Origin: Candidatus Hydrogenedentota bacterium
GTDB lineage: Bacteria; Hydrogenedentota; Hydrogenedentia; Hydrogenedentales; SLHB01
NCBI GenBank assembly: GCA_045863295.1
Contig: BTWA01000003.1
Location: forward strand, 96,001-160,000
Direction of reading: 5' to 3'
DNA length: 64,000 nt
Within the stretch, counting starts at the first letter, position 1. Each line of letters begins with the position of its first letter. Made by a program: the position numbers and the translations under genes. The notes beneath the pieces were generated by a model. That model saw only the letters and a list, made by a program, of their open reading frames with translations, was not told the DNA's origin and searched no databases. Of this stretch, positions 3,695-22,448 are shown piece after piece.

Positions 3695-4343
3695 CGGCCG
3701 ATCGCCAAACAGAATGCCTGATCCCTCAAAAGGGTGTACTGTTCCACGGACTGATTTCGCATAAACTTGCCATGGATATGGATTGGTTTCGCGCGTGCGT
3801 CCAATAAGCAAAAAACAACCGGTCACGGTCATGGAGAGAGTCAAGGCCATATAGAGGGTCTGCCCGCCTTTGCTTGTTTTTCGCCCACGGGACGGTGATA
3901 AGTGCCTTGGGCAGTTGGAAAACGCCATTGGCATTCATAAGCGTGGCTTGAGTACTAGCCTAGTGTGGAAGCCCCCAACGCGACAGCGTCGCCACGCCTT
4001 AAATGCAACATCCTTTTTCCGCTCCCCGCCACCCTCATACCCGACAATTCAATAATTAACCCTTGTTTTGTAAAAATACGATGATCAGGTGGCGTAGCGC
4101 CGCCACCATACCCCAAATCGCTATATGGAATGCGCTGGCAGAAGCCGCCTCAAAGCGGCTGGCGACGGCGCCTTGGCTCGGTGGACGTGATCGCGGGCGA
4201 GGAGGTTAAGCGATTGCGCGGACCAAAACGGGTGAGCACTGAGTTTTTGCCCAGGCCGACGCGAACGGCGTTTCCCGTTTTCCGGGTGGCGGCGACTATG
4301 GAGTACCCATTAAGGAAAGGGTCGTTTGGAGACACTGAAGGCC

Positions 4344-7019
4344 ATGCCCATGGACGATGCCGCGCTGCTGGAACGGTGGACACGCCGCCGGGATACGGAG
4401 GCGTTCAACGAGATTGTTGAACGGTTCGCGGGACAGGTATTTGGCACGTGCCGACGGGTCTTGAACAACGATGCGGATGCGGAGGAGGTGGCTCAGGAGG
4501 CGTTCTTCGCGTTGGCGCGATGTCCGGCGGACGTTCGTACATCGTTGGGTGGATGGCTGCATCGGGTGGCGACGTACAAAAGCAGGGATCGCATTCGCGG
4601 TGAAGTGCGGCGGCGGCATCGGGAATTTGTCTATGGCCAATCAATGCCTGCGTCGGTGGAACCGCGGTGGAACGACATACGCGAGTATGTAGATGAGGCG
4701 ATCGAAGCGATCCCGGAGGAGTTGCGCGATGCCGTTGTCGCTCACTTTCTGGGGCGGAAGGCGCACGCGGAAATCGCGGCCGAACTGGGTCTTACGCGCC
4801 GCGCGGTGTCGTACCGGATTGAGCGCGGGCTTGAGGCCGTGCGCGGCGAACTCCGGCGGCGAGGCGTGGCGGTGTCCGCGGCCGCGCTTGGAACCTCGCT
4901 CGCTTCGGACGTATCCGCAGCCCCACTTTCCTTAAAGGCTTCACTGGGAAAACTTGCCATCGCCGCCGGAACGACTTCCGGAGCAGGCGGGTCCACCGCC
5001 ATCAGCAGCATGCTGGGGAGCCTCTTGGTCATGAAGACAAAGACATTGCTAGTTGCAGGGATCATGGTCGCCATTGCGGCCGGCCTTTATTACGCGATTT
5101 CGCGCGGCGGGGACACCGCGCCGGACTGGAGCCACGTTCCTGAAGTCAAAGGGGTGTCAAGCACTTTGGCGGATGGCCCCACTTCCGTGGTGGCGCCTCC
5201 ACCCAAGACCCGGGTGGAAATTGTCCCTGCGGTGGAAACGCCTACATTGGACACGTTGCTCGCACTTTCGCGACTGGAATTGGAGCGCGAATCGGATCGG
5301 TATCCGCTCATTACGGATCCTTCCCAGTATGCCTCGGTCTCGGGCACGGTAATCGACGGGGACGGCTATCCCGTGCCCGATGCGACGATAGCGCTAGTGC
5401 CGACACACGCGTGGGGCCAACTGCCGGATTCTGAAGACATTGCACACACGGCGGCCAGCGGCGCAGACGGCGTCTATCGCATCGAATCCATCAGGCGCAC
5501 GGGGGATTTTCGCGTCGTCGCTACGAAGCCCGGCTTTGAGTCGGAAGCGGTGTACACCGCGGTCCAAGCGGGGAAGGACGCGATTGTCGACATAACGATG
5601 AAGGGTGGATTTAGCATCCAGGGACGCGTCGTGACGGCGACGGGAGGGCCTGTTCCGGGTGCATATCTCTATTGCATTGGCCTGACGGGCCCGAGAGATC
5701 TCGTCCACGATCTGACTCGCGCCACGCAAACCGATGGCGAAGGGTACTTCTCTTTTGGTTTCAAAGAGGATCAGGTGGGGTTGGTGGCGGCGTTCCGCGT
5801 TCAATCCGCGAAACACGGCGACCGCACGTTCCCGGACATCCTCATTCAAAATAATTCCCTGATCGAGCTGCGCCTGGAGCCGCCCGCCGTCATCCGCGGC
5901 ACGGTACGAGACAGTTCGGACAAGCCCTTGTCGGGCGCGCGGCTGACGTTTTACGCGGCAAAGTCCATTGATGTCGAGCGTGCCGACGGCGAGATTTGGG
6001 CCAGTCCCTCGTACGCAGGTAGTTTTTTGGCGGTCAGCGACGGGTCTGGCCGCTATGCGACGGAAGTGGACACCGGCATGGAGTTTCATGTCAATGTTGA
6101 AGTGCATGGGTTTGATGATGGCCGCGAACGAATGGAGATAATCAAGGCATTGGCTGCGGGCGAAACGCGGGAGTATAACCCCGTGTTCAACACGGACACC
6201 ATTGCGGTTCATGCTGCGTTCGTCGGTCAAGAGTCCGGCCAACCGCTGACACAGTACGTTCCCATCGAGGCCTTCGCGATTTATGAGGGGAAGACCGTGG
6301 CGAAAGGCCAACAGGACGGACTTTTCGCGGCCCGGTTCACGTTGCCGGGCGCCAAGGGGGCCTATTCCTTCCAAGCGCGGTATATGTACGATGCGGACGT
6401 GGCGGGCGATATTTCAGCGGTGTATGAGTTGGAGGGCGGCGACGAGATCGAGATTGAATTGAATGTCCCCGATCCGCAGCGTTTTGAAGTACGCGTCGTG
6501 GACCCCAACGGCAGTCCTGTGGAAGGCGCGCGCATACGGTTTCAGACGGAAACATGGGGAGGCAACGCAATCAGTTACGGCCAGACCAACGCCGATGGCC
6601 GCCTTAGCGAGCCCATTCTGCTTGCGCCGATGAGCGGAGCCCGGATGATTGTGGAGAAGCCCGGATATGCGCTGGCTTTTGGGCAACCTTTCTCGGAACA
6701 AAGTCCGGGAACGGTGCATCCCGAGGAAACCGTTGTGCTCTGGCCGGGGGCGGGCTTCGAGGGAGTGTTGCTGGATAGCGCAAAACAACCGCTCGCGAAC
6801 ACGGCGATTGCCATTTCCGTGACCAATCGCGAAGGCCAGGAATGGCCTCTGCATGCGGCGACCGATTCAGCCGGGCATTTTACGATCGTGAGCGAGGCGC
6901 CGGCCGATGTGGTGGATATAGCCGTCTTTGCCGGCGACGGGGCCGGAACAAGCGTCGCTCAACAGATGCAACTGGAGGCCAACGCAATTGCGTGGCTTGG
7001 GGAGTTTACGTTGGAGTGA
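4344..7019 (+). CDS. ECF sigma-70 factor with transmembrane segment and C-terminal carboxypeptidase-regulatory-like (Ig) repeats
   Basis: Region 2 DAEEVAQEAF..WL and region 4 HAEIAAELGLTRRAVSYRI. TM helix LLVAGIMVAIAAGLYY. Repeated G.V.D..G.P(V/L).GA motifs. Start codon uncertain (4326/4344/4350). Confidence 0.85.
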   Translation: MPMDDAALLERWTRRRDTEAFNEIVERFAGQVFGTCRRVLNNDADAEEVAQEAFFALARCPADVRTSLGGWLHRVATYKSRDRIRGEVRRRHREFVYGQSMPASVEPRWNDIREYVDEAIEAIPEELRDAVVAHFLGRKAHAEIAAELGLTRRAVSYRIERGLEAVRGELRRRGVAVSAAALGTSLASDVSAAPLSLKASLGKLAIAAGTTSGAGGSTAISSMLGSLLVMKTKTLLVAGIMVAIAAGLYYAISRGGDTAPDWSHVPEVKGVSSTLADGPTSVVAPPPKTRVEIVPAVETPTLDTLLALSRLELERESDRYPLITDPSQYASVSGTVIDGDGYPVPDATIALVPTHAWGQLPDSEDIAHTAASGADGVYRIESIRRTGDFRVVATKPGFESEAVYTAVQAGKDAIVDITMKGGFSIQGRVVTATGGPVPGAYLYCIGLTGPRDLVHDLTRATQTDGEGYFSFGFKEDQVGLVAAFRVQSAKHGDRTFPDILIQNNSLIELRLEPPAVIRGTVRDSSDKPLSGARLTFYAAKSIDVERADGEIWASPSYAGSFLAVSDGSGRYATEVDTGMEFHVNVEVHGFDDGRERMEIIKALAAGETREYNPVFNTDTIAVHAAFVGQESGQPLTQYVPIEAFAIYEGKTVAKGQQDGLFAARFTLPGAKGAYSFQARYMYDADVAGDISAVYELEGGDEIEIELNVPDPQRFEVRVVDPNGSPVEGARIRFQTETWGGNAISYGQTNADGRLSEPILLAPMSGARMIVEKPGYALAFGQPFSEQSPGTVHPEETVVLWPGAGFEGVLLDSAKQPLANTAIAISVTNREGQEWPLHAATDSAGHFTIVSEAPADVVDIAVFAGDGAGTSVAQQMQLEANAIAWLGEFTLE

Positions 7020-11517: not shown

Positions 11518-13506
11518 ATGCCTTCTCATGGCCCGGAATTCATGACGCAAATCGTGGTGTTGTTTGGTACGGCACTGGTCACCGCGTGGTTATTCCGGCT
11601 CGTACATGCGCCATCGATCATCGGATATTTGTTTACCGGGATCGTGTTGGGGCCATCTGCGCTTGGGTTAATTACCTCGGACGGAGTGGGCGAACTTTCC
11701 GAGATTGGTCTGATCCTGCTCTTGTTCATCGTGGGACTGGAACTGTCTCCCAGACCGCTTGTGCGGCTTGGCGCGTCTATCTTAGTTGCCACGGGCCTCC
11801 AAATCGGGATTACGGCGGGCGGTGCAGGAGCCGTGGCGTGGGGACTTGGGGGCTTGTCTCCGTCGGCTTCGCTGATTGTGGGGATAGTGGTTGCGCTGAG
11901 CAGCACGGCCATTGTGCTGAAACAACTGAGCGACCGGGGCGAAACGAACACGGTGAATGGGATCATCACGACGGCGATCCTGCTTCTCCAAGACATCATC
12001 GTAATTGTGGTTATGTTGTTCGTGCCGTTGCTCGCCGCGGCGGGCAGTGGCAATCTGGGCGAGACTCTGGGAACGACCCTTATATCGTTGGCCGGGGTAG
12101 TGGCCGCCGCGTTGGGCGCGCGCAAGGTGCTCCCTTTGTTCTTGAACAAGGTGGTGCGTTCGGGTGGTTCGGAGTTGATGGCGCTTTTTGCCGTGATGAT
12201 GGCATTCGGGGGCGCGTGGCTGGGAGGTTTGGCGGGTTGGTCGCCCGCGCTTGGTGCGTGTGTGGCGGGGCTGCTGCTTGCGGAGGCCGATGAGCGCCAC
12301 CAGTTGGCGGCGGATATCATGCCGTTCCGGGATGTATTCAACGCCATCTTCTTTATCACGCTTGGGGTAATGGTGGATGTGCACCTGGTTCTCCCCCACC
12401 TTGGCCTGCTCGCGATCGCGGTGTTGGCCACGCTTGCGGCAAAGACAATCATCACGACATTCGCGGTAATGGCCTGCCGGTGGCCGTTGCGGCCGGCGTT
12501 GCAGGTTGGGTTGGGGCTATGCACGGTCAGCGAATTTGGGTACGTGCTTGCGAACGAGGCGGCCAAAGCGGGTGTATTGCCCGAGGGCGTTCTGGAGATC
12601 GTCATTGCGTACGCAGTCGGCACGATGATGATCGGAGCGGCTTTGGTGCCCCTGTCGGGGCCGGTCGCGGAAGCCATCGCAAACCGGTTGCCGGGCAAGA
12701 CCAGAGAGCCGGATCGGGAAGATTCGCTCGCGGCCACATCCCAGTCGCACCACGTCATCATCGTAGGTTACGGCCTGACCGGCGAGAACATGCACAAAGT
12801 GTTGGCGGCCACGCGCATACCTCATTGCGTGATCGAGATGAATGCCCGGCTCATCGCGGAAGCGCGTGCGGATGGCGCGGACGTTATTATGGGGGATGCG
12901 TCGCGGATGGCCATTTTACGGCATGCGGGTATTGGCCACGCGCATGCGATGGTCATTGCGATCAATGACCCGCAAGGCACGCGAAGCATAGTCGCCAAGG
13001 CGCGTACGACGCGGCCGGACATTTTTATCCTTGCCCGAACGCGGTTTGTGGAGGAACTGGATGGCCTGTACCGGTTGGGCGCGAATCAGGTGATACCGGA
13101 GGACTTTGAGACGTCGGTGGAAATTGCCGCGAACATCCTTAAGGAAATGGACATACCGGACAATATCGTGGACGCGCAGATCGCGGCGATTCGGGCGGGA
13201 CGTTATGGGATGTTGCGCGGTCTTGCTTCCGATCGCAACGCACAAGAAGAGCTGATTCGCGTGTTGAACCTAACGGCGACACGTTCCCACTATCTTCAAG
13301 AGGGAAAGGCGGCCTGTGGCAATTCGATCCTGAGTCTCAACTTGCGTGCGGTTACAGGCGTGACCATCATTGCGATCATGCGCGGGAGCAAGCCCATTAT
13401 CAGTCCGGATCCGGACTTTGTACTTACCGCGGGCGACGTGCTCATCATGGTGGGATCTCATGCGCAACTGGAGGCGGCGAAAGTGTTCTTGGAGTCTCCG
13501 GCTTAG
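11518..13506 (+). CDS. CPA2-family monovalent cation:proton antiporter (Kef-like) with TrkA-N and TrkA-C domains
   Basis: LLLFIVGLE, ALSSTAIV, LLLQD, SEFG membrane motifs. VIIVGYGLTG Rossmann fold and C-terminal RCK_C. Confidence 0.92.
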   Translation: MPSHGPEFMTQIVVLFGTALVTAWLFRLVHAPSIIGYLFTGIVLGPSALGLITSDGVGELSEIGLILLLFIVGLELSPRPLVRLGASILVATGLQIGITAGGAGAVAWGLGGLSPSASLIVGIVVALSSTAIVLKQLSDRGETNTVNGIITTAILLLQDIIVIVVMLFVPLLAAAGSGNLGETLGTTLISLAGVVAAALGARKVLPLFLNKVVRSGGSELMALFAVMMAFGGAWLGGLAGWSPALGACVAGLLLAEADERHQLAADIMPFRDVFNAIFFITLGVMVDVHLVLPHLGLLAIAVLATLAAKTIITTFAVMACRWPLRPALQVGLGLCTVSEFGYVLANEAAKAGVLPEGVLEIVIAYAVGTMMIGAALVPLSGPVAEAIANRLPGKTREPDREDSLAATSQSHHVIIVGYGLTGENMHKVLAATRIPHCVIEMNARLIAEARADGADVIMGDASRMAILRHAGIGHAHAMVIAINDPQGTRSIVAKARTTRPDIFILARTRFVEELDGLYRLGANQVIPEDFETSVEIAANILKEMDIPDNIVDAQIAAIRAGRYGMLRGLASDRNAQEELIRVLNLTATRSHYLQEGKAACGNSILSLNLRAVTGVTIIAIMRGSKPIISPDPDFVLTAGDVLIMVGSHAQLEAAKVFLESPA

Positions 13507-13753
13507 CCCGGATATTTCACGACTTTGTCCAATTAACTGTGTACCAACAATTCAACCGGCCTGTTACCAAAACTGGCGCACTTACAGTATGCAGGTGAAA
13601 TATCCTCAGCGTTTCAAGCTTAAGGAATTCTGTGTGAGCATTTTGCACCACGGAGACTGTACTTCAGTCTTCCACGGAGACTGTACTTCAGTCTTCCACG
13701 GAGACTGTACTTCAGTCTTCCGCGCACGAATTAGGCGTGGTGCAAATTGCGGG
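13507..13753. mobile_element. non-autonomous MITE-like element, copy 1 (247 bp; ends resemble IS1380-family IRs)
   Basis: Near-identical to 26888-27086. Imperfect terminal IRs CCCGGATATTTCACGAC / GTGGTGCAAATTGCGGG. Flanked by a TTAG direct repeat (13503-13506, 13754-13757). No transposase. Confidence 0.75.
13648..13719. repeat. perfect 24-bp tandem repeat x3 (CCACGGAGACTGTACTTCAGTCTT)
   Basis: Three adjacent exact units with no spacers. Only one unit is present in the second element copy. Confidence 0.95.
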
Positions 13754-14731
13754 TTAGGCATTCACCATAACGGCTTTGCCATGGCACGCGCGGTTTTCAA
13801 TGGCTTCAAGTGCCGATGGCAAATCGTCCAGCGGGAATTCCCGATAGATAACGGGTTTGATCTTTCGCTCGTCATAGAGGCGGTACAGAGTATGCTGCGT
13901 GTCCCGAATGCGCGCGGTATCGCGCGTTTGATAGGCCCCCCAATACACGCCGATTACTTCCATATTCTTAAGGAGGACCCGGTTTGCCGGGATAGAGGGA
14001 ATGGTGCCTCCGGCAAATCCGATGACGAGCAAGCGGCCTTCGTGTGCGATACATTTGACGCTTTTTTCCAGGACGTCGCCGCCAACGGGATCGAGGATCA
14101 CGTCCGCGCCATTGCCGCGCGTGATTGCCTTTACTTGACTTACGAAATCGGTGTTTGAGTAGTTGATGACGTGGTCGGCGCCGCATTCGGCGCAGACGCG
14201 GCACTTGTCTTCGTGGCCCGCCGTTGCGATGACGTTGGCGCCGAGGACTTTGCCCAATTGGATGGCTGCCGAACCGACACCGCCCGCACCTCCATGCACG
14301 AGCAGCCACTCCCCTGCTTTCAAGCGGCCGCGATACGCCAATGCGAAGTGCGCGGTTTGGTAGTTTATCGTAAGCGCGGCGGCGTCGACGGCGGTCATGG
14401 CATCGGATATGAGGAAGGTCGTGTCGTCCACGGCAAGCATTTCTTCAGCGAATGCGCCCATGAGGTTGACCGTGACAACGCGATCTCCCGGTTTGAAGCG
14501 GCTTTGACTGCCGCATTCGGTTACGACGCCCGAAGCTTCGCTGCCGGGCACAAACGGCAAGGGCGCCCGCACTTGGTATTGTCCGGCGATGTTTAACAAG
14601 TCAGCAAACATGACGCCCGCCGCCTGTACGGCGATGCGAGTGGTTTCTCCTTCGGGGATGGGCGACGGCTGATCGGACAGTGTCAGGACGCTCTTGTAGT
14701 GGCCGTATTCGGCGACGGTCCATGCGCGCAT
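13754..14731 (-). CDS. NADPH:quinone oxidoreductase (zeta-crystallin/MDR family)
   Basis: PFVPGSEASG, LVHGGAGGVGSAAIQ, ILDPVGG, GFAGG, GKAV. Confidence 0.92.
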   Translation of the reverse strand: MRAWTVAEYGHYKSVLTLSDQPSPIPEGETTRIAVQAAGVMFADLLNIAGQYQVRAPLPFVPGSEASGVVTECGSQSRFKPGDRVVTVNLMGAFAEEMLAVDDTTFLISDAMTAVDAAALTINYQTAHFALAYRGRLKAGEWLLVHGGAGGVGSAAIQLGKVLGANVIATAGHEDKCRVCAECGADHVINYSNTDFVSQVKAITRGNGADVILDPVGGDVLEKSVKCIAHEGRLLVIGFAGGTIPSIPANRVLLKNMEVIGVYWGAYQTRDTARIRDTQHTLYRLYDERKIKPVIYREFPLDDLPSALEAIENRACHGKAVMVNA

Positions 14732-14761
14732 TGGGGGGCTCCTTGATTGGATGTAGCCGTT

Positions 14762-17104
14762 CTAAAAATGACGTTGGGCGCCGTACCAGTTGCTTGCGCC
14801 ATGGTCGAGGTGCAATACGGGGACGCCGGCAATGCGTGTAACGGGTCCGTAGTGCGCGATCAACTCCTTGGCAAACTTCCAGTCGGCTCCTTCAAAATGT
14901 TGGAGTTCTTCGTATCGCACCTTTTGAAGGCATTCCCGGCGAAAACACTGACAGAAGCCGACCGGAATTCCGTCGGCCTCGTCCTGGCGGTATTCTCCGG
15001 GACCGTTGACCAGGTCGTTCCATTGATTGGACGGCTGAATTTCGCCGATGAGAATTCCAGCCGTCGCCTCGCGAGTCAACATTTTTCTCCCGTCGGGCGC
15101 TGCGAAATACGTCTCCGGGGGCAATTCTCCCAACGTCTTCATCCACAGTGTCGGGAGAATGATGTCGGCATCCATGATGAGAATCCATTCCCCGCGGGCC
15201 TGTGCCATGCATTCGTTGAGCATGAACCCTTTGGCCCGGGCATGATCCGGCGCGAATGGCACGCGGATCATTCGAAGTCCCGGATAGGCGGCTTCGATGG
15301 AGTCCATGACATCCGGCGTCGCATCAACGCCGGGCACGTGCGCAACGAGCACTTCAATGTCTTGTCGATCGACGCCTTGTTGACGTGCGACGCTGAGTAG
15401 GGACGCCTGTAATCGCCGGGCGTAGCGAGTGCTGACCACGACAACGGAGAATCGAGGCGTGTGTTGGAGAGTCTGTTGTGTTTCCTGCCATATCGCGACG
15501 CCTTGCGTGCCAACATTGCCGTCGATATTCCAGATGGCGATGCGCGGCTCGAGATTATTTCCCAGCCGTTCGGGCACGTAATATTTGCCGATGAATTCCG
15601 TAGGCACTTGCGGTACGCCATCGCGGAGAAGTACGTAGCGTCCATCGCTTTCGACGTGAATGGCAATTCGATGGGCGTAGGCGGTCATGGGACACATGAG
15701 TGTGGCGTGGCGTCCAAATTGGAAACCCACGTATTCAGCGATACCTCCTCCAACGGTGTAGGCCAGTGTGAACGGCGGCGCAAGCCGCGCAAGCGGCGTG
15801 CTGATTTTTTCCGAGACTGTAAAACTAAACCAGCCAACACTGCCCGGCCCCTGCCAGCTCCACTCGCCTTCCACCTTGTAGTCTTGCGAGCCGAATTCGC
15901 GGACCGGTTGCGTGTTCTGAAGGATGCTGTTCGCGCGGGCTGTCATTTCGTTGAGCTCCGAACGCCGAGACAGCCTATCCGCATCGAGCGCGTCCAGGCG
16001 ACGCTTGCGGGACTTTGAAAACGCGAACGGATCCATGGCCACGTCGCCGGGCAGCGCCTGCAGACGCAGATCGGGGTAGGAGCGCTGTAGATGGGCCGGC
16101 GCATGGTCGCAAATGCGTCGCAAGGCACAGGCGTTGCACGGAGGCGGGCAATGCTGTGTGTGACTGCCGGACCATTCACGCGCTTCGGAAGTCAAGGAGC
16201 CCGCGAGCGGTTGCGGCGTAGGGGCTTTGCTGTGATGGCGCGTAAGTTTATGTAGTGCCCAAAGTCGAGCTTTGGCCCATGGATAGTCCATTAACCATGG
16301 CAACAATTTGCGGTCGATCGGGTTGTCGTATGCGGTGTGCCTTCCCAGAAGCATGGACAGTGCTGAACCAGCGATGGCCGGCGACATACGGGTAATCTTT
16401 TGGGCGAGCAGGTAGGACTCGCGCACATAAAACTGATGGTCCGAATAGAACTGCGCGTCGTTGACTATGAATTGCCGGACATCCTCCGGCACAACACAGA
16501 AGGGCCAACCGATGAGGTTTGCTTCCATGCCGTGTTGCGTTGCGGCGCGGGCGAGCGCAGCGGCCCGATCCAACGTGACGCTGGTGGCCATGGCATTTCG
16601 CGCGCGGCCGGGCGACACAAAGGGATCGGTGGCGGCGATGTGCACGGTCTGTACGCCTGCAACCGCCCACCCTGCGGCGGCGGATTCCGGATCCCACTCG
16701 ATGGCGAGAGGACCGGTAATCTGAATACGAATCGGCAATCCGGCCAAGTGCGCCGCCTCAAGCCACCGGTTGACATGTTCGCCACGGATTACGGAGGGTG
16801 CCAGTAGAATGTCCAGGAGTCCAAGGGACTCCAAGATTGTGGGATCGGGCGGAGGCATAGCGGCGGCGGTGCGAAGGGACAGGCGCGCATCCATTTCCCT
16901 GGCCACATCCGCCGCGTATCGGGCCGCTTCCGAGTCAAAGGAATTCGAAATCAGATCGAGTTTGGCGGTCTTGTAGGCGACGCGGTTGAGGCGAATCCAC
17001 CGGGCGATATCGACGAATCGGAAGGGTTTTCCCTTTTGATTGTGCAGGCAGATCAGTCCGCGAGTTGGCGGAAGCGACGTATCGAGGTACGTGACGTCCT
17101 GCAT
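14762..17104 (-). CDS. GT-A (GT2-like) glycosyltransferase fused to a degenerate radical-SAM-like N-terminal region, paralogue 2
   Basis: TGATG overlap with upstream paralogue. C-terminal FSVVVV...ARGEWILIMDAD...HLDH. N-terminal RLSLRT..LESLGLLDILL, WPFC, CNACALRRICD. Confidence 0.75.
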   Translation of the reverse strand: MQDVTYLDTSLPPTRGLICLHNQKGKPFRFVDIARWIRLNRVAYKTAKLDLISNSFDSEAARYAADVAREMDARLSLRTAAAMPPPDPTILESLGLLDILLAPSVIRGEHVNRWLEAAHLAGLPIRIQITGPLAIEWDPESAAAGWAVAGVQTVHIAATDPFVSPGRARNAMATSVTLDRAAALARAATQHGMEANLIGWPFCVVPEDVRQFIVNDAQFYSDHQFYVRESYLLAQKITRMSPAIAGSALSMLLGRHTAYDNPIDRKLLPWLMDYPWAKARLWALHKLTRHHSKAPTPQPLAGSLTSEAREWSGSHTQHCPPPCNACALRRICDHAPAHLQRSYPDLRLQALPGDVAMDPFAFSKSRKRRLDALDADRLSRRSELNEMTARANSILQNTQPVREFGSQDYKVEGEWSWQGPGSVGWFSFTVSEKISTPLARLAPPFTLAYTVGGGIAEYVGFQFGRHATLMCPMTAYAHRIAIHVESDGRYVLLRDGVPQVPTEFIGKYYVPERLGNNLEPRIAIWNIDGNVGTQGVAIWQETQQTLQHTPRFSVVVVSTRYARRLQASLLSVARQQGVDRQDIEVLVAHVPGVDATPDVMDSIEAAYPGLRMIRVPFAPDHARAKGFMLNECMAQARGEWILIMDADIILPTLWMKTLGELPPETYFAAPDGRKMLTREATAGILIGEIQPSNQWNDLVNGPGEYRQDEADGIPVGFCQCFRRECLQKVRYEELQHFEGADWKFAKELIAHYGPVTRIAGVPVLHLDHGASNWYGAQRHF

Positions 17105-19461
17105 CAGAAATGCTTCGTCGTGCCGTACCACTGGCTGCCGCCGTGGTCGAGGTGCAATACGGGAAGACCGCTCAACCGGACTTCCTTTCCGTATTTATCC
17201 TGGAGGGCCATTCCGAACCACATGTCGGCTCCCTCAAAATGGTCGAGCTCATGGTATTTCACTTTGCGCATGAACTCGGTGCGGAAGCATTGAAAGAAGC
17301 CTACGGGAACGCCTTTCGCTTCGCGGTAGCGGTATTCACTCGCTGTCTTCAAGAGGCGGTCCCATTCATCCCAGGGTTGAATCTCGCCGAGCAATATCTT
17401 GGCAGTATCTTCTTTGCTGAGCATCTTCCGACCGTCAGCGGCAATGAAATTGCAGTTTGCGGATTCTTCCTCCACTCTGGCGAACATATCGGGTGACAGC
17501 ACGATGTCGGCATCCATGAGGACGGTCCATTCGCCGGAAGCCATGTTGACGCCTTCGTTGATCATGAATCCCTTGGCATTGGCGTTTTGCGCGGGAAACG
17601 GTGCGCGGAGAATGCGCAATTCCGGAAACGAGTTGTGCATGCTGTCGATAAGATCGTCGGTAGCGTCGAGTCCGGGAATGTAGCAGACGATGACCTCGAG
17701 CTTGCGGAGATCGAAGTTGCGCTGATGGGCAAGGCTTCGAAGCATGGCCTGCAATCGCCGGGCATAGCGGGAGTTCACGACGACGACCGAGTACTTTACC
17801 TGGTTGGCGTCCCCGGCAAGCGACTTTTCGCCTCGCCAGATTTTCACAAATTGCGTCACGATGTGCGTGTCGATGTTCCAGATGGAAATGCGCGGATTGA
17901 GCACGGTCGGCAATCGCACCGGTGCGTAGTGCAGCCCTTCGAATTCGACCGGGCTCACGGCTTTTCCATCGCGGAGCAACACGTAGTGTCCGTCACGCTC
18001 CACGTGGAGCGTCAATGTGTGCCGGTATCCTTCCATGGGACAAACCACCTTGATGTGCCGCCCGAAACTGAATCCGATGTAATCGGCGATGCCGCCGCCA
18101 AAGCCGACAGAAATGGTGCACGGCGGCTCGATCTGGGGCAGTGCGGTGCTCACCTTCTCCCCGGCGGCAAGGGAATGCCAGCGCACTCCTCCTTCCATGG
18201 GTTCGAACGGCGCGGCCTCCACGCCGTATTCATAGGGCATGAGTTGCTGATCGGGCTTTACGTTCTCCACGATTTCGTTGGCGTGATGAACAAGCTTCCG
18301 ATGCGCGTCTGTGGTGGAGCGGCGCGGGCGATCGATTGCATCGTAGTGCTTGGGCTGGTGCGCACAAAAGTGCATGGCCGATACCACCAATTCGCCCTCT
18401 TGCTTCTTTGGGTTGAGTCCGGGCAGCGCTTCCGCGACGGCGGGTGTCACGCGATCGCAGATTCGGCGCAGGCTGCACTCTCCGCACTCGGGCCCCATGC
18501 GCTTGAGGTCGTCCGCACGGATTTGTTCCAGCCGCTTTCGCACGTCTGCGTTGGTTTCGTCGGCGGCGCGGGCTCGGCCACGGAGCCGGTGGAGATGGCG
18601 GGTCAGTTTGTGCCAGCCGACCATCCAAGGCATGAGGAAGCGGGAGTGCATCAACAGGCGCAGCAGGACGGCGTCGACAAACGTGCGCTGGAACGTGGCG
18701 CGAGCGGTCATGATCAGCAGGATCTTGCCGACGGCGGAATACGGGTTGCGGTAGAGCGTCTGCGCGAGTTCGTAGGCTCCCTTCCGGTATTGCTGGTGGT
18801 CAAGAAAAAACTGAGGGCTATTGACCGCGTGCGGCCAGTTTTCGTTCGACACGTGGCAAAAGGGAAGAAAGGTGAGGTTGACTTCGATTTCCCTGGCGGC
18901 CAGATTCCGGACAAGCGCGTTCATCCGGTCCAAGGTGTGCGCGGTATCCCGGGAATTGGAGGAATGCATTTTGTGAATAAACGGATCGTACGTCGCGATA
19001 TTCACGGAAACTGGGGAGTACAAAGCGATCTCCGCGGCGATGGACTCTGCGTCCAGGGATGCACAAAAAGGCGCGTGTAATTGCAGTCGCAACGGCACGT
19101 CGGCATCGCGGCAAGCCTTTGCCCACGACTCCGCGTTCTTGCAGGGCCATTCCGGGAGCGTCAAAAAAACGTCGAGCAGGCCGGCTTGCTTCAGGGACAG
19201 CAATGGCACGCCCGGAAATTCCCCTTCGCACCGGATGGACAAACGCACGCCCATTTCCTCGGCGTCTCGTAGCAGACCGTTCATTCGGTCGATGGTGTGT
19301 ACATTGACCAGCACATCGACTTTCTCCGCATTGAACACGATACGATTGAGGCGCAGCCAGCGCTTCACATCGATCGCGGAAAAAGCCGATCCTCGGTGGT
19401 TTTGCAGGACGACTAACCCGCGCACAGGGGCAATTCGCTGTTCGTCGACTATCAGGGACAC
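17104..19461 (-). CDS. GT-A (GT2-like) glycosyltransferase fused to a degenerate radical-SAM-like N-terminal region, paralogue 1
   Basis: GTG start. C-terminal YSVVVV...ASGEWTVLMDAD...HLDH. N-terminal GVRLSIRCEG..LKQAGLLDVFLTL, LPFC, CGECSLRRICD. Colinear with 14762-17104. Confidence 0.75.
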   Translation of the reverse strand: MSLIVDEQRIAPVRGLVVLQNHRGSAFSAIDVKRWLRLNRIVFNAEKVDVLVNVHTIDRMNGLLRDAEEMGVRLSIRCEGEFPGVPLLSLKQAGLLDVFLTLPEWPCKNAESWAKACRDADVPLRLQLHAPFCASLDAESIAAEIALYSPVSVNIATYDPFIHKMHSSNSRDTAHTLDRMNALVRNLAAREIEVNLTFLPFCHVSNENWPHAVNSPQFFLDHQQYRKGAYELAQTLYRNPYSAVGKILLIMTARATFQRTFVDAVLLRLLMHSRFLMPWMVGWHKLTRHLHRLRGRARAADETNADVRKRLEQIRADDLKRMGPECGECSLRRICDRVTPAVAEALPGLNPKKQEGELVVSAMHFCAHQPKHYDAIDRPRRSTTDAHRKLVHHANEIVENVKPDQQLMPYEYGVEAAPFEPMEGGVRWHSLAAGEKVSTALPQIEPPCTISVGFGGGIADYIGFSFGRHIKVVCPMEGYRHTLTLHVERDGHYVLLRDGKAVSPVEFEGLHYAPVRLPTVLNPRISIWNIDTHIVTQFVKIWRGEKSLAGDANQVKYSVVVVNSRYARRLQAMLRSLAHQRNFDLRKLEVIVCYIPGLDATDDLIDSMHNSFPELRILRAPFPAQNANAKGFMINEGVNMASGEWTVLMDADIVLSPDMFARVEEESANCNFIAADGRKMLSKEDTAKILLGEIQPWDEWDRLLKTASEYRYREAKGVPVGFFQCFRTEFMRKVKYHELDHFEGADMWFGMALQDKYGKEVRLSGLPVLHLDHGGSQWYGTTKHF

Positions 19462-19530
19462 GATATCGTAATCCGATCCGGCAGTTTTTGTTTTGAGAGC
19501 TCACGCGCACGAGGCGCAGCCAGTCGGGCA

Positions 19531-19559
19531 ATGATAGTCGCACCGGGGAAAAGTGTCAA
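19531..19559 (-). promoter_or_regulatory. putative sigma-70 promoter for the fusion-glycosyltransferase operon
   Basis: Minus strand TTGACA (19559-19554), 17-nt spacer, TATCAT (19536-19531), about 70 nt upstream of the GTG at 19461. Confidence 0.55.
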
Positions 19560-19674
19560 AAGTTTACCTGTTCTATGGTAGAGTTTTCGCGTTGAACGGC
19601 ATGTACAGGGGTCTTAGACTTGAAGTTACACAATGCGTGCGCGTTCTTCTCGCGATTGATGGGGTTGAAAGCCG

Positions 19675-20304
19675 ATGAAGCTTGCGGTTGCCTTATCCAT
19701 ATTGTTCATGGCGTTTGTAGCCGTTGCTTTCGACGCCTCGGCCCACGAGGAACTGGAGCGGTATATCCAGCAACGAGTGATGGCGGAGGTCTCGCGCGAG
19801 AACATTGACTTTACGTTGGAGATCTTGTTCACGAGTCCCGCTTCCGTGAGGGAGCGTAAGCGTATCGACGCGAATCATGATGGCGCTTTGGACAAGGCGG
19901 AGCGCAAGGCGTATCTGGAAAGCGCGCTGACGAAGTTGGAATCCGATGTTCGTTTTCAAATTGACATGGAGGCCGTGAACATTGTTCCTCTGGGGGAACC
20001 AGAACTGGATCTGCTGGATTCAAAGGATATGGAGGCGCACCCGCATGTGTTGCGGTTTCGATTTTTTGCGCGCACGCCGGGGTCGTTTCGGGGGGGCAGC
20101 GTGTTGCAGTTGGATTCGCGGTTGTTTGTGGACGAGCCGTGTTTGGTGTCTGTGTCCGTGCAGGGCAAAGGCGGCATTCAGATGAGCGTATCGCCGACGG
20201 AGGGACTCAAACGGGCGGCCGAGGATGAAGAGGGCATTTGCCTTCTCAAGGCGACTTGCCGGTACATTCGTTTGACAAAAAGCACTTCGGGGGAAGAGCC
20301 ATGA
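19675..20304 (+). CDS. secreted hypothetical protein with an EF-hand-like loop
   Basis: Signal peptide ending ASA-H. DANHDGALDKAE fits the Dx[DN]xDG Ca-binding loop. ATGA overlap with the next gene. Confidence 0.65.
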   Translation: MKLAVALSILFMAFVAVAFDASAHEELERYIQQRVMAEVSRENIDFTLEILFTSPASVRERKRIDANHDGALDKAERKAYLESALTKLESDVRFQIDMEAVNIVPLGEPELDLLDSKDMEAHPHVLRFRFFARTPGSFRGGSVLQLDSRLFVDEPCLVSVSVQGKGGIQMSVSPTEGLKRAAEDEEGICLLKATCRYIRLTKSTSGEEP

Positions 20305-22448
20305 AGCAATTTCTGATCGTGACGTTGTTCGCATTCGCCGTGGCGCACGGCCAGGAAATGGAGGCGCTACCGGGCGCTCCGGAGATGGCGGGCGCGCTTG
20401 TGAAACAGCATGGGTATCTGTTTGGCGCCCCGGTATCGGCGGAGGCGGATGCCTCGAATCGGGATTGGCAAGAAATACAGCAGGCGTCGCGCCGAGCGAC
20501 CAGCGAAGAACAGAAGGCCGAAGTGGCGACACGGCGGGCCGCCGCGGCGGATGCGCTCGTGAAGTTGCTGGAGTCGTGTCCGGAAAAGTATGACTTGGCA
20601 TTCACGGGGATGGAGACGACATTGCCGCCGCTGGCGCCGGCACGGTTTCCGGGCGACTCCGCCGCATTCCTGTTTCGCGTGGCAACGGGCGATGGACCCG
20701 CTCGGTGTCTTGTGTTGGACTTCGATCTTTCGGAGCATTCCCATCTCCCGCAATTTCCGGTGGAAGTGGCGCCCGGTTGCACAACGTGGGTACTGGTTTC
20801 GTTGCGGCGGTTGCCGCAATTGACGACGCACTGGTCGTTCGAATTTCGCGTTGCGGGCCTTCCCACGACCTCACTTCCACTAACCCTGAAGGCATCGGAT
20901 CACGGCACGCTGAAACTGTCGGTACTCTCGGATGACGATGGCAAGGTTTCCCCCGCCATGATTCGATTGACCTGGAAGACCGATGGCAGCGATGTGCGTC
21001 CGGGCGGGGCATTGGATTTCAGTCCGCAGTTCGACAAACAGGGGAACCATACCGGCGCGCGGCGCGCGAACCTGCCGGGCAAGCTCGCGGGAGCGTATTG
21101 GTGCATACCGGGCGCCATTTCCATGTCGGTCGCGCCGGGCGAATACGACGTAGTGGTCCTTCGCGGGGTTGAGCACGTGGCGGTATACGACACGGTGACC
21201 GTGCCAGAGGGAGGCATGGCCGAGCGGACGTACCGGCCCCGGCGCTGGGTGAATATGCCGAAGGCGGGGTGGTACTCCGGCGACGACCATGTGCACTCGC
21301 AGATCTTGAGCGATGCGGATGCGGACGCGACCATGACCTGGATACAGGCTGAAGATGTGCATCTGGCCAATGTGGTCAAGATGGGCGATATCAACCGGAC
21401 GTGGTTCGAGCAGCGGGGCTTCGGCAAGAACTACAGGGTAATCGACGGCGACTATATTCTCTCGCCGGGGCAGGAGTGTCCACGCACGCATAACGAATTG
21501 GGCCACACGCTGGCGATGAACATCAAGAACATGATCCGGGACACGGATCGCTATTATTTGTACGACACGGTTTTCGACGAAGTGCACCGGCAAGGGGGAT
21601 TATCGGGCTATGCCCATGTGAACGCGGGGCTGTTTCACGTGCATCGCGACATGAGCATGAACATTCCCAAGGAAAAGATCGATTTTGTGGAGTTGCTCCA
21701 ATTCGCGGACATGAGCACGGATCTCTACTACGAGTTCCTGAATACCGGGTTTCCGGTCACCGCGTCGGCGGGGAGCGATGTGCCGTGGGGCGGGACTGTG
21801 GGCGAAGTACGGGTATTTGCCTACGTGGGCAAGAAGCGGTTTACCGCGGATCGCTGGTTTGAGGCAGTGCGGCGGGGAAATACGTTTGTGACCAACGGCA
21901 TCATGCTGGATTTTACCGTGGATGGCGCGTTGCCCGGAGACACGCTGAAGGTCGGCAATGGGGATTCGGTGCGCGTGAAGGCCCGCGCGTGGGGCGATCC
22001 GGAACGGGATGTGCCTTCCAAGCTGGATGTGATGGTGCATGGCGCGGCGGTGAAGACGGTCGAATCCAGCGATCCGAGACAGGCTGAACTCGCGATCGAA
22101 TTCGAATTGCCCGCCGCGAACGGGTTCTGGATTGCAGCGCGCGCGGAAGGCGCGGACGGGTCCCGCGCACACACGACGCCGGTATATGTGATCCGGGACG
22201 GTCTGCGGTTCTGGAAATATGATGCGCTGGATGAGTTGATCGCCAAGCGCGAAGCGAGCCTCGCGGAAATAGAGCAGATCGTGGCCGAGGCGACGCAGGG
22301 GAACAGTCCGCGGATTCCCATGGGGCCGCGTCCGGCGGAGTTGCTGGCGCAACAAGGTCCGGCGTTGCTGGAAAGAGTGGAAGCGGCCAAGGCTATCTAT
22401 GCGGAGCTGCGCGCAGCAAAGGAGGCCGAGGCGGCGTTACGGGAGTGA
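20301..22448 (+). CDS. secreted CehA/McbA-type (PHP-fold) metallohydrolase
   Basis: Signal peptide MKQFL...AVAHG. GWYSGDDHVH, GYAH, YYEFLNTG.P.TASAGSD, FVTNG, AHTTPVYV. Confidence 0.8.
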   Translation: MKQFLIVTLFAFAVAHGQEMEALPGAPEMAGALVKQHGYLFGAPVSAEADASNRDWQEIQQASRRATSEEQKAEVATRRAAAADALVKLLESCPEKYDLAFTGMETTLPPLAPARFPGDSAAFLFRVATGDGPARCLVLDFDLSEHSHLPQFPVEVAPGCTTWVLVSLRRLPQLTTHWSFEFRVAGLPTTSLPLTLKASDHGTLKLSVLSDDDGKVSPAMIRLTWKTDGSDVRPGGALDFSPQFDKQGNHTGARRANLPGKLAGAYWCIPGAISMSVAPGEYDVVVLRGVEHVAVYDTVTVPEGGMAERTYRPRRWVNMPKAGWYSGDDHVHSQILSDADADATMTWIQAEDVHLANVVKMGDINRTWFEQRGFGKNYRVIDGDYILSPGQECPRTHNELGHTLAMNIKNMIRDTDRYYLYDTVFDEVHRQGGLSGYAHVNAGLFHVHRDMSMNIPKEKIDFVELLQFADMSTDLYYEFLNTGFPVTASAGSDVPWGGTVGEVRVFAYVGKKRFTADRWFEAVRRGNTFVTNGIMLDFTVDGALPGDTLKVGNGDSVRVKARAWGDPERDVPSKLDVMVHGAAVKTVESSDPRQAELAIEFELPAANGFWIAARAEGADGSRAHTTPVYVIRDGLRFWKYDALDELIAKREASLAEIEQIVAEATQGNSPRIPMGPRPAELLAQQGPALLERVEAAKAIYAELRAAKEAEAALRE

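Follow-up and report, generated by a model that had tools for sequence, protein, structure and literature searches.

Two Paralogous Predicted Glycosyltransferases of a Hydrogenedentota Bacterium Carry an N-Terminal Domain Derived from a Radical-SAM Enzyme

Two adjacent genes on the minus strand of a 64,000-nucleotide stretch of DNA from a Candidatus Hydrogenedentota bacterium (the window) were found to encode proteins, designated A and B, in which a barrel derived from the radical-SAM enzymes is followed by a beta-rich block and a predicted glycosyltransferase. The explanation that we favor, with somewhat better than even confidence in it as a whole, is that the paralogues A and B are old members of a Hydrogenedentota-specific family of three-domain cytoplasmic glycosyltransferases of ~785 residues. 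They would most likely function as envelope-glycan transferases that carry a ligand-binding pseudo-enzyme domain. No model in Pfam or NCBIfam describes the three-domain architecture, and neither a paper on it nor a name for it was apparent in the results of a full-text literature search, in keeping with an earlier note on this DNA, which had not recognised the arrangement.

The open reading frames listed for the minus strand are 17104..19461 (785 amino acids, GTG start) and 14762..17131 (789 amino acids when read from a GTG). The N-termini of the homologues agree with the GTG start of A and with an ATG start for B. The two genes meet in the sequence ...TTC TGA TGC..., where the TGA stop codon of A (17106-17104) and the ATG start codon of B (17104-17102) have one base in common. 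Proteins A and B can be aligned over their full length with 39% identity (305/779) and 6 gaps, and B falls in a clade distant from A on the family tree. The TTGACA-17-TATCAT promoter was located at 19559-19531 and is the sole sigma-70-like match within 13400-19900; shuffled sequence contains a mean of 2.7 sigma-70-like sites at a looser scan threshold. No signal peptide was seen when the N-termini of A and B were inspected by eye. The earlier description of two colinear paralogues of 780 and 785 residues, joined by a TGATG overlap behind this promoter and made without signal peptides, therefore stands. The motifs that it quoted are also all visible in the translations, namely RLS.R, GLLD(V/I), PFC, CxxCxLRRICD, GGGIA.Y.GF.FGRH, CPM, YVLLRDG, PRI.IWNID, MDAD, and CYIPGLDAT or AHVPGVDAT. 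The features of the pair are collected in Table 1.

Table 1. Features of genes A and B, in positions of the window
Feature	Position	Strand	Remarks
Sigma-70-like promoter TTGACA-17-TATCAT, 5' of gene A	19531..19559	-	11/12 consensus positions
Gene A	17104..19461	-	785 aa; order pseudo-radical-SAM barrel, jelly-roll (probable), GT2 glycosyltransferase
A residues 1-345, radical-SAM-derived beta/alpha barrel	18427..19461	-	CxxxCxxC and GGE absent
A Cys202 (PFC motif)	18856..18858	-	First of four conserved Cys; homologue alignments
A Cys326-x2-Cys329-x5-Cys335 (CGECSLRRIC)	18457..18486	-	Common to live radical-SAM relatives
A residues ~400-552, beta-rich block	17806..18264	-	Probable concanavalin-A/laminin-G-like jelly roll; conserved CPM Cys474
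A residues 553-785, GT-A fold GT2 catalytic domain	17107..17805	-	DxD D650/D652 at nt 17506-17514
TGATG A/B stop/start junction	17102..17106	-	One base common to stop and start
Gene B	14762..17104	-	780 aa from ATG; paralogue of A, same three domains, four Cys, intact DxD
B pseudo-radical-SAM domain	16076..17104	-	Alignment
B beta-rich (jelly-roll-like) block	15464..15919	-	Alignment to A
B GT2/GT-A domain	14765..15463	-	Pfam and alignment

The last ~230 residues of both proteins had been read as a GT-A transferase with a DxD motif, and this assignment is upheld by GT2 matches above the Pfam cutoffs and by GT-A matches in structure searches. For A, the scores are 40.8 bits with PF13641 (cutoff 27) and 31.1 bits with PF00535 (cutoff 23.3); for B, they are 30.2 and 36.0 bits, respectively. 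These GT2 models, at approximately residues 557-735, are the only ones that Pfam finds in A or B. When the full model of A was used to search with Foldseek and against PDB structures, the matches were dominated by the GT-A domain, and this domain contains the DxD motif within a GT-A fold. Six catalytic-site residues are invariant in 174 of 174 family proteins, the usual VVDDGS stretch is replaced by Y(I/V)PG.DAT, and the C-terminus of A carries HLDHG.S.WYG. The family profile and the predicted structure establish this domain as a GT-A/GT2 glycosyltransferase that is predicted to be catalytically intact.

The closest likenesses of the catalytic domain are found among the GT2 transferases for polymeric or lipid-linked acceptors: AvpGT (9jn3), TarS (5tze), TarP (6h4m), K4CP (2z87), WrtF (9omm), RmlT (8bz8), and SpsA (1h7l). 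These enzymes have the DxD motif in common with A and B; the identities are 13-20%, and their N-terminal partner domains are unlike those of A and B. The top Foldseek match of the full A model is the galactofuranosyltransferase GlfT2 (4fix, 9nj1; E 2.4e-11) over 421 columns, a length that must take in a beta domain preceding the GT-A domain, as is also found in GlfT2. However, the match has a TM of 0.20-0.25 and an rmsd of ~22 A, and thus the arrangement of the domains differs from that in A. GlfT2 lies outside the top 50 by VIA-align Z. GlfT2 also has a C-terminal helical domain, which is without a counterpart in A or B.

The N-terminal domain was identified through its live relatives. Alignment of the N-terminus with hhalign to 22 live standalone radical-SAM proteins of Hydrogenedentota gave a probability of 99.1% (E 5e-19) over 297 columns that span the CxxCx5CD motif, and alignment to the live fused forms gave 98.6% (E 6.7e-16). 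Members of both target alignments match PF04055. The full AlphaFold2 model of A has a mean pLDDT of 86.2 and a pTM of 0.83, and a partial (beta/alpha) TIM barrel with seven beta/alpha repeats is present at the N-terminus, with a basic helical insert at approximately residues 227-300. The structure neighbours of the N-terminal model in the ESM Atlas are radical-SAM clusters; the Foldseek matches are to generic TIM barrels (E ~1e-5, TM 0.3-0.4), including BioB and HydE, and are unspecific when taken alone. More direct searches returned nothing for this region: PF04055 does not match A or B at E values up to 1, PF13186 has no Pfam match on either protein, and a PDB sequence search with the family profile found GT2 matches only, with none in the N-terminal 550 residues.

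The residues needed for radical chemistry are missing. No CxxxCxxC motif is present in A or B by inspection and by alignment, and MAFFT places a gap of 16 columns in A and B exactly at the position of this motif in the live fused proteins P0214, P0219, and P0220. Among the homologues aligned, there is no conserved cysteine in residues 1-200. The GGE/GGEP motif is also absent, and A reads VDVLVNVHT where the live forms have VDITGGEPT or IDIQGGEPT. Canonical cleavage of SAM by the N-terminal domain would be impossible, since the CxxxCxxC loop and GGE have been lost. Profile alignment and the barrel model together show the N-terminal ~345 residues to be a predicted radical-SAM-derived barrel in which the SAM-cleaving cluster motif and GGE are lost, and by sequence comparison the domain is a paralogue of the live standalone radical-SAM enzyme of Hydrogenedentota. 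The earlier proposal of a catalytically dead radical-SAM scaffold is borne out by this homology, by the fold, and by the missing motifs. Its comparison with HxsC-like enzymes is a reasonable lead. When 54 N-terminal domains were searched against NCBIfam, the only matches were weak ones to HxsC models, in 8 of the 54, and the scores with TIGR03977 (12-14.5 bits) are far under the cutoff of 267.9.

Three live metagenomic fusions, P0214, P0219, and P0220, have the same domain order as A and B and can be aligned with them colinearly from end to end, at 22% identity. The PFC, CxxCx5CD, DxD, and HLDHG motifs are held in common. Unlike A and B, the three fusions retain CxxxCxxC, GGEPT, and TNG and match PF04055, and they do not have the ~50-residue helical insert. 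Such live fused forms are very rare; 5 proteins were found, compared with 385 matches for the dead form, and two of the 5 are ~430-440 amino acids long and span less than half of the query. The closest relative of the pseudo-domain is the standalone live enzyme, whose 297 aligned columns include the long insert and CxxCx5CD but which has no glycosyltransferase domain. A precedent for radical-SAM-like pseudo-enzymes is provided by the name of TIGR04347, "pseudo-SAM/SPASM protein", which the live relatives match at E 1e-14 to 1e-19 and which has no match on A or B. The live fused relatives also match HxsC4 end to end, and the scores with both models are far under the curated cutoffs.

Four cysteines are conserved in the N-terminal domain, one in a PxC motif and three in CxxCx5C. 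Of 165 relatives, 144 have all four, 15 have none, 1 has one, 5 have two, and none has three. In structure alignments, the auxiliary-cluster enzymes BlsE (7vob), TigE (8vpo), anSMEcpe (4k36), and MoaA (1tv7) align as far as residues 340-350 of A, where CxxCx5C is located, and the alignments to viperin (5vsl) and PqqE (6c8v) end at residue 255. The SPASM pattern consists of seven cysteines. The domain described here differs from the SPASM/twitch enzymes in having only four conserved cysteines, in being without CxxxCxxC and GGE, and in being fused to a jelly-roll-like block and a GT2 domain. The pattern of conservation among the homologues shows that the four residues act as one putative site, inherited from the live enzyme and kept in most members, and they would be expected to converge in space. 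The complete set was lost at least 4 independent times on the family tree, and the Cys-less members retain 9.9 of 11 barrel residues compared with 10.4 of 11 in the others. The conservation of the cysteines that was anticipated earlier is thus confirmed, and they are lost as a set, whereas an essential role for the site is not supported, given the total losses in which the remaining domain is conserved.

The strands assigned by DSSP on the A model show a beta-rich block between the two larger domains. Its neighbours in the ESM Atlas at TM 0.65-0.70 are 3-keto-disaccharide hydrolase, laminin G, and DUF6250 domains. The block, of ~150 residues, probably folds as a jelly roll of the lectin type, an assignment that serves as a lead only, as predicted structures were matched with predicted structures.

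The family was found in 125 of 135 Hydrogenedentota genomes, 82 of 86 high-quality genomes, and 61 of 66 genera, and it is near-universal and single- to low-copy throughout the main order of the phylum. It is present in 88 of the 90 genomes that carry the live radical-SAM gene. In at least 29 genomes, the coordinates place the live gene upstream of the family gene on the same strand, with intergenic gaps of 23-410 bp. There are also 37 genomes (families f8 and f10, genus g30) with the family and without the live gene, and thus the partnership is not universal. The live standalone protein has intact CNLRCYFCYF, GGEPT, and ITNG motifs and a mean column identity of 67% in its alignment; it is uncharacterised, as no NCBIfam model reaches its cutoff on it. 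In the source genome, the live gene is found on contig 35 (G000, L062:9038-10462) and not on the contig of A and B. It is preceded there by genes for an ABC-2 permease and a 694-residue ABC ATPase, an arrangement like that of a Wzm/Wzt exporter. Nothing recognisable was noticed among the small open reading frames between the exporter and the live gene in an unsystematic look. Prediction of a complex between residues 1-550 of A and the live enzyme of the same genome gave a score of 0.00, which speaks neither for nor against binding.

Alignment over the full length of the 694-residue ATPase with its counterpart in the Hydrogenedens-type loci gave 42% identity; besides this counterpart, those loci contain a family gene, genes of the GT4 and GT2 types, and two further radical-SAM genes. 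Linkage to the exporter was seen in five of these loci (L045, L046, L049, L050, and L057); in L058, the GT4 and GT2 genes are kept and there are no exporter genes in the stretch. The cluster 10 radical-SAM protein of the Hydrogenedens-type loci was examined as possibly identical with the live radical-SAM partner, but its similarity to the fused live domain is weak (28% identity over 98 residues), and it was therefore treated as a different enzyme. A BacA gene adjoins the family gene in L056 and lies a few genes upstream in L028 and L048. The survey of homologue neighbourhoods thus places exporter, GT4, GT2, and BacA genes near the family gene in some loci. Within the window itself, no glycan-pathway genes were found near the pair, and the nearest genes encode a Zn-dependent dehydrogenase and unannotated proteins.

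We propose that A and B may assemble a glycan of the cell envelope on the cytoplasmic side, for outward transport by an ABC exporter. The two enzymes would probably add different or successive sugars. The pseudo-radical-SAM barrel would hold or recognise a ligand, with no catalysis of its own and probably with a contribution from the jelly roll; this ligand may be whatever the live paralogue acts on, be it a sugar, a glycan, or a compound of the adenosine type. The four cysteines may ligate a metal or Fe-S centre, either structural or auxiliary, from which the protein benefits but which it can do without. A bolder proposal, which we regard as possible but doubtful, is that the pseudo-domain still functions, either as a sensor or as a hand-off module, and combines the substrate pocket of the paralogue, possibly adenosine binding, and an auxiliary Fe-S site. 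It would then form one part of a phylum-specific machine, the other parts being the live enzyme and the Wzt-like exporter with its long tail, and this machine would install a radical-modified envelope sugar and then glycosylate or cap it.

It may also be asked whether the barrel does anything at all. If it were a structural relic, kept as a scaffold for folding or oligomerisation with no role for a ligand, then A and B would be ordinary GT2 enzymes. The loss of the catalytic motifs is consistent with this idea, as is the rapid divergence of the N-terminal domain, which is 29-49% identical to that of A compared with 34-61% for the whole proteins and is strongly diverged in one subset of the family. 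On the other hand, about a dozen polar or charged strand residues of the barrel have been conserved in 138-171 of the 174 proteins, which is unusual for a scaffold, and several of these are common to the live radical-SAM relatives. The invariant polar residues in A are R14, K47, D49, S75, R77, D97, R125, E193, and N195, among which K47/D49, S75/R77, R125/Q127, and E193/N195 form i/i+2 pairs with their kept neighbours; they would line a single cavity in the barrel. We consider the relic unlikely.

The earlier note had offered two roles for the N-terminal domain, of which a substrate-binding module fits the data better than a redox- or metal-gated heterodimer. We regard an obligate A/B heterodimer gated by a redox- or metal-sensing four-cysteine site as unlikely. 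The tandem genes with their TGATG junction and single promoter would suit a heterodimer, as would the tandem order of A-like and B-like genes in 13 of 58 loci, the age and retention of both lineages on the family tree, and the presence of the four cysteines and DxD in A and B alike. However, 74 of the 125 genomes have a single family match, and A-like and B-like genes fall on separate contigs in several assemblies (L007/L028, L003/L041, and L009/L048). The 15 of 165 members with none of the four cysteines keep the remaining domain, and hence gating by this site is no property of the family.

Peptide glycosylation of the RiPP/glycocin type, in which the pseudo-domain would bind a precursor that is modified by the live radical-SAM enzyme, is very improbable. 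In its favor, the radical-SAM relatives with names that come closest, the SPASM/twitch and HxsC-type enzymes, mature peptides or cofactors, and the glycosyltransferase domain has a weak sequence match to the S-glycosyltransferase SunS (E 0.0037). Against it, the family is near-universal and single- to low-copy, as accessory RiPP clusters are not; the genes around it encode an ABC-2/Wzt-like exporter, GT4 and GT2 enzymes, and BacA; and the short gaps before the family gene leave little room for a precursor gene.

The family to which A and B belong comes close to being a core gene in this uncultured phylum, although databases offer no annotation for two thirds of each protein. Its members and relatives form a natural series that leads from an oxygen-sensitive radical enzyme to a pseudo-enzyme: a live standalone protein, a live fusion, a dead form with the four cysteines, and a dead form without them. 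The family also appears to connect radical-SAM chemistry with glycan assembly of the ABC-transporter-dependent type, and the literature search returned no paper on such a connection. If ligand binding persists in the barrel, the domain would be of a type new to glycosyltransferases, serving acceptor recognition or regulation, and would provide a handle on the envelope glycans of Hydrogenedentota. Should the sensor or hand-off proposal prove true, this would be the first radical-SAM-derived pseudo-enzyme that directs a glycosyltransferase.

The interval flagged in the earlier note was found to be occupied by two long open reading frames, both on the minus strand, that encode the paralogous proteins A and B. 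The junction between the two genes reads TTC TGA TGC, with one base common to the stop codon of A and the ATG of B, and the two proteins are 39% identical over their full length with only 6 gaps, in agreement with the colinear paralogues and TGATG overlap described in that note. The proposed promoter site is the sole sigma-70-like match within 13400-19900, and all of the quoted protein motifs were located.

Genes A and B and the promoter site (window positions)
Feature	Position	Strand	Description
Gene A	17104-19461	minus	ORF, 785 aa, GTG start
Gene B	14762-17104	minus	ORF, 780 aa from ATG; 789 aa if the GTG 27 nt upstream is used
TTGACA-17-TATCAT site	19559-19531		upstream of A; 11/12 positions matched

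The reading of only the C-terminal part as a glycosyltransferase is also borne out; Pfam detects GT2 models alone, at approximately residues 557-735, with scores that exceed the cutoffs. Outside the GT domain, the best NCBIfam match is to the radical-SAM maturase HxsC (48 residues, E 0.072). Glycan-pathway neighbours of A and B are absent from the window; a Zn-dependent dehydrogenase is encoded downstream, and unannotated ORFs are found upstream. Two ORFs divergent from the A/B promoter region, 19675-20304 (+, 209 aa) and 20238-22448 (+, 736 aa), have no Pfam match and no counterpart among 58 related loci. An 897-aa ORF at 4326-7019 (+), with N-terminal ECF sigma-70 regions 2 and 4, also contains carboxypeptidase-regulatory-like and bacterial Ig-like domains, as if a sigma factor had been joined to extracytoplasmic-type domains.

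The N-terminal domain was identified through three metagenomic proteins (P0214, P0219, and P0220; 727-749 aa) that are distant matches of an exhaustive search. These contain a genuine PF04055 domain followed by the same beta block and GT2 module, and their sequences have CxxxCxxC, GGEPT, and TNA/TNG; radical-SAM proteins with CxxxCxxC and GGE are termed live here. The live fusions and A/B are colinear end to end in a joint alignment. The PFC and CxxCx(5)CD motifs are common to both, as is R-G-(L/V) at strand 1, after which a gap of 16 columns in A and B coincides exactly with the live cluster loop. GGEPT is aligned with VNVHT, and relative to the live fusions A and B are longer by a helical segment of ~50 residues that lies between PFC and CxxC. 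In profile-profile comparisons, 54 N-terminal domains of the family (A, B, and their relatives) matched the live fusions at 98.6% (E 6.7e-16) and 22 standalone live radical-SAM proteins of the phylum at 99.1% (E 5e-19, 297 columns), with the latter alignment extending across both the insert and CxxCx5CD. The N-terminal domain of A and B is thus a disabled radical-SAM barrel, as the earlier note had supposed in calling it a catalytically dead scaffold.

Residues ~227-300 of A (window 18570-18785) constitute a helical, strongly basic insert with a conserved HKLTRH and an invariant D263. This insert is modeled with low confidence (pLDDT 41-65), is missing from the live fusions, and aligns with a long insert in the live standalone protein; it may touch the membrane or a partner.

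Residue conservation was determined from an alignment of 174 proteins, composed of all collected proteins of 600-900 aa through P0181, without P0003 (the database copy of A), and the 3 live fusions. Residues R14, K47, D49, S75, R77, D97, W113, R125, Q127, D159, E193, and N195 (A numbering) are each conserved in 138-171 of these proteins. They form i/i+2 pairs on strands 2, 3, 5, and 7, as do side chains that face one side of a barrel sheet. Residues R14, D49, D97, R125, E193, N195, Q217, and D221 are common to the family and the live enzymes. We infer that the pseudo-radical-SAM domain would still form the ancestral pocket and bind something.

The four cysteines are conserved in the same alignment in 155 (C202), 150 (C326), 156 (C329), and 150 (C335) proteins. 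Among 165 family members with the N-terminus covered, all four are present in 144, three in none, two in 5, one in 1 (P0138), and none in 15. This all-or-none distribution speaks for a single site made up of all four cysteines; because the live enzymes have the same motif, an auxiliary cluster or metal site is its suggested origin. The members with two cysteines (P0018-P0021 and P0051) belong to two separate lineages that lost the same positions, 326 and 335, and retain 202 and 329. In a family tree with the live fusions as root, the Cys-less members fall into a basal clade of 11 (the one-Cys P0138 among them), the basal short form P0176, and three further separate lineages (P0148; P0132; P0078/P0139), so that complete loss occurred independently at least 4 times. 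The site is apparently dispensable, since the Cys-less proteins retain the other conserved barrel residues (mean 9.9/11 versus 10.4/11). Cys474 of A (window 18040-18042), in the CPM motif of the beta block, lies outside this site and is conserved in 161/174 proteins.

Residues ~400-552 of A are all-beta. The Atlas structure neighbours of this block are 3-keto-disaccharide-hydrolase, laminin-G, and DUF6250 domains (TM 0.65-0.70 over ~135 residues), and an Atlas feature search returned a sialidase-like CBM cluster (score 0.89). Taken together, these comparisons between predicted models suggest, as a lead only, a concanavalin-A-like jelly roll. For the full model, Foldseek ranks GlfT2 first (E 2.4e-11, 421 columns, TM only 0.20-0.25), a match that must take in a beta domain preceding the GT-A domain. 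The beta block and GT module are also found after other sugar-modifying domains, such as Methyltransf_24 in P0227 (match residues 425-782).

A word-indexed search returned 385 relatives, nearly all of 750-830 aa and annotated as GT2 only; those that have a name in their source are entered as 'glycosyltransferase' or 'hypothetical protein' from Candidatus Hydrogenedentes/Hydrogenedentota assemblies. An exhaustive phmmer search over 1.84 billion representatives gave 193 matches at E<=0.001, 79 of them at E<=1e-30. The majority of the 58 loci from a genome scan are titled Hydrogenedentota, and the remainder Nitrospiraceae/Nitrospirales, FCB group, Rhodothermaeota, or 'uncultured bacterium'. A family match (E<=1e-40) is present in 125/135 genomes of the phylum, 82/86 high-quality genomes, and 61/66 genera; among the 10 genomes without one are the sole representatives of two outlying families. 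A few family genes contain a single in-frame stop (L001:8001-10355; genomes G104, G097, and G091), and the live radical-SAM match of G016 and G017 is part of a 1143-aa open frame broken by one TAA. Sequencing errors, pseudogenes, or read-through may account for these stops.

The match table gives one match in 74 genomes and two or three in 51. The redox- or metal-gated A/B heterodimer raised as a possibility in the earlier note is not supported as an obligate complex, given the single-copy genomes and the assemblies in which A-like and B-like genes are on different contigs. An A-like gene followed by a B-like gene recurs in tandem in 13/58 loci, and A and B belong to clades far apart on the family tree; the duplication thus dates far back, and both copies have been maintained. 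Together with the single copy of most genomes, this agrees better with two transferases that differ in specificity than with an obligate heterodimer.

The first 550 residues are covered by no Pfam or NCBIfam model, the database names are generic, and full-text literature searches, judged from their listings, brought up neither such a fusion nor a pseudo-radical-SAM glycosyltransferase, all of which supports the view that the architecture is undescribed. The component parts (radical-SAM barrel, jelly roll, and GT2) are of known kinds, and NCBIfam TIGR04347 is a named precedent for pseudo-radical-SAM proteins. The function, ligand, metal content, and partners of A and B are matters that we infer.

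A standalone radical-SAM protein of 452 aa (L039:6626-7984) shares 38% identity (E 1e-56) with the live domain of P0214. This live gene is found in 90/135 genomes (52-73% identity for near-full-length matches); 88 genomes have both genes, 37 the family alone, 2 the live gene alone, and 8 neither. From the coordinates, at least 29 genomes carry it immediately upstream of a family gene and in the same orientation, 23-410 bp away. In the genome of A and B it is unlinked to them (59% identity); it lies on contig 35, where genes for an ABC-2 permease and a 694-aa ABC ATPase precede it on the same strand. The Hydrogenedens-type loci contain, in order, a beta-helix protein, an ABC-2 permease, an ABC ATPase, a GT2, a radical-SAM/SPASM gene on the opposite strand, a further radical-SAM gene, the family gene, two GT4s, a 159-aa protein, a 3-keto-disaccharide-hydrolase-domain protein, and a GT2. 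Across the full length, a C-terminal extension of ~440 residues included, their ATPase is 42% identical to that of contig 35. This extension of the Wzt-like ATPases (L062:11036-13120 from contig 35 and L050:2218-4563) has no Pfam match, keeps 42% identity between distant Hydrogenedentota, and may be a glycan-recognition domain. A gene for undecaprenyl-diphosphatase (BacA) adjoins the family gene in one locus (L056) and is a few genes upstream in two others (L028 and L048). The linkage to exporter, glycosyltransferase, and BacA genes points to a role for the family in the ABC-transporter-dependent assembly of an envelope glycan.
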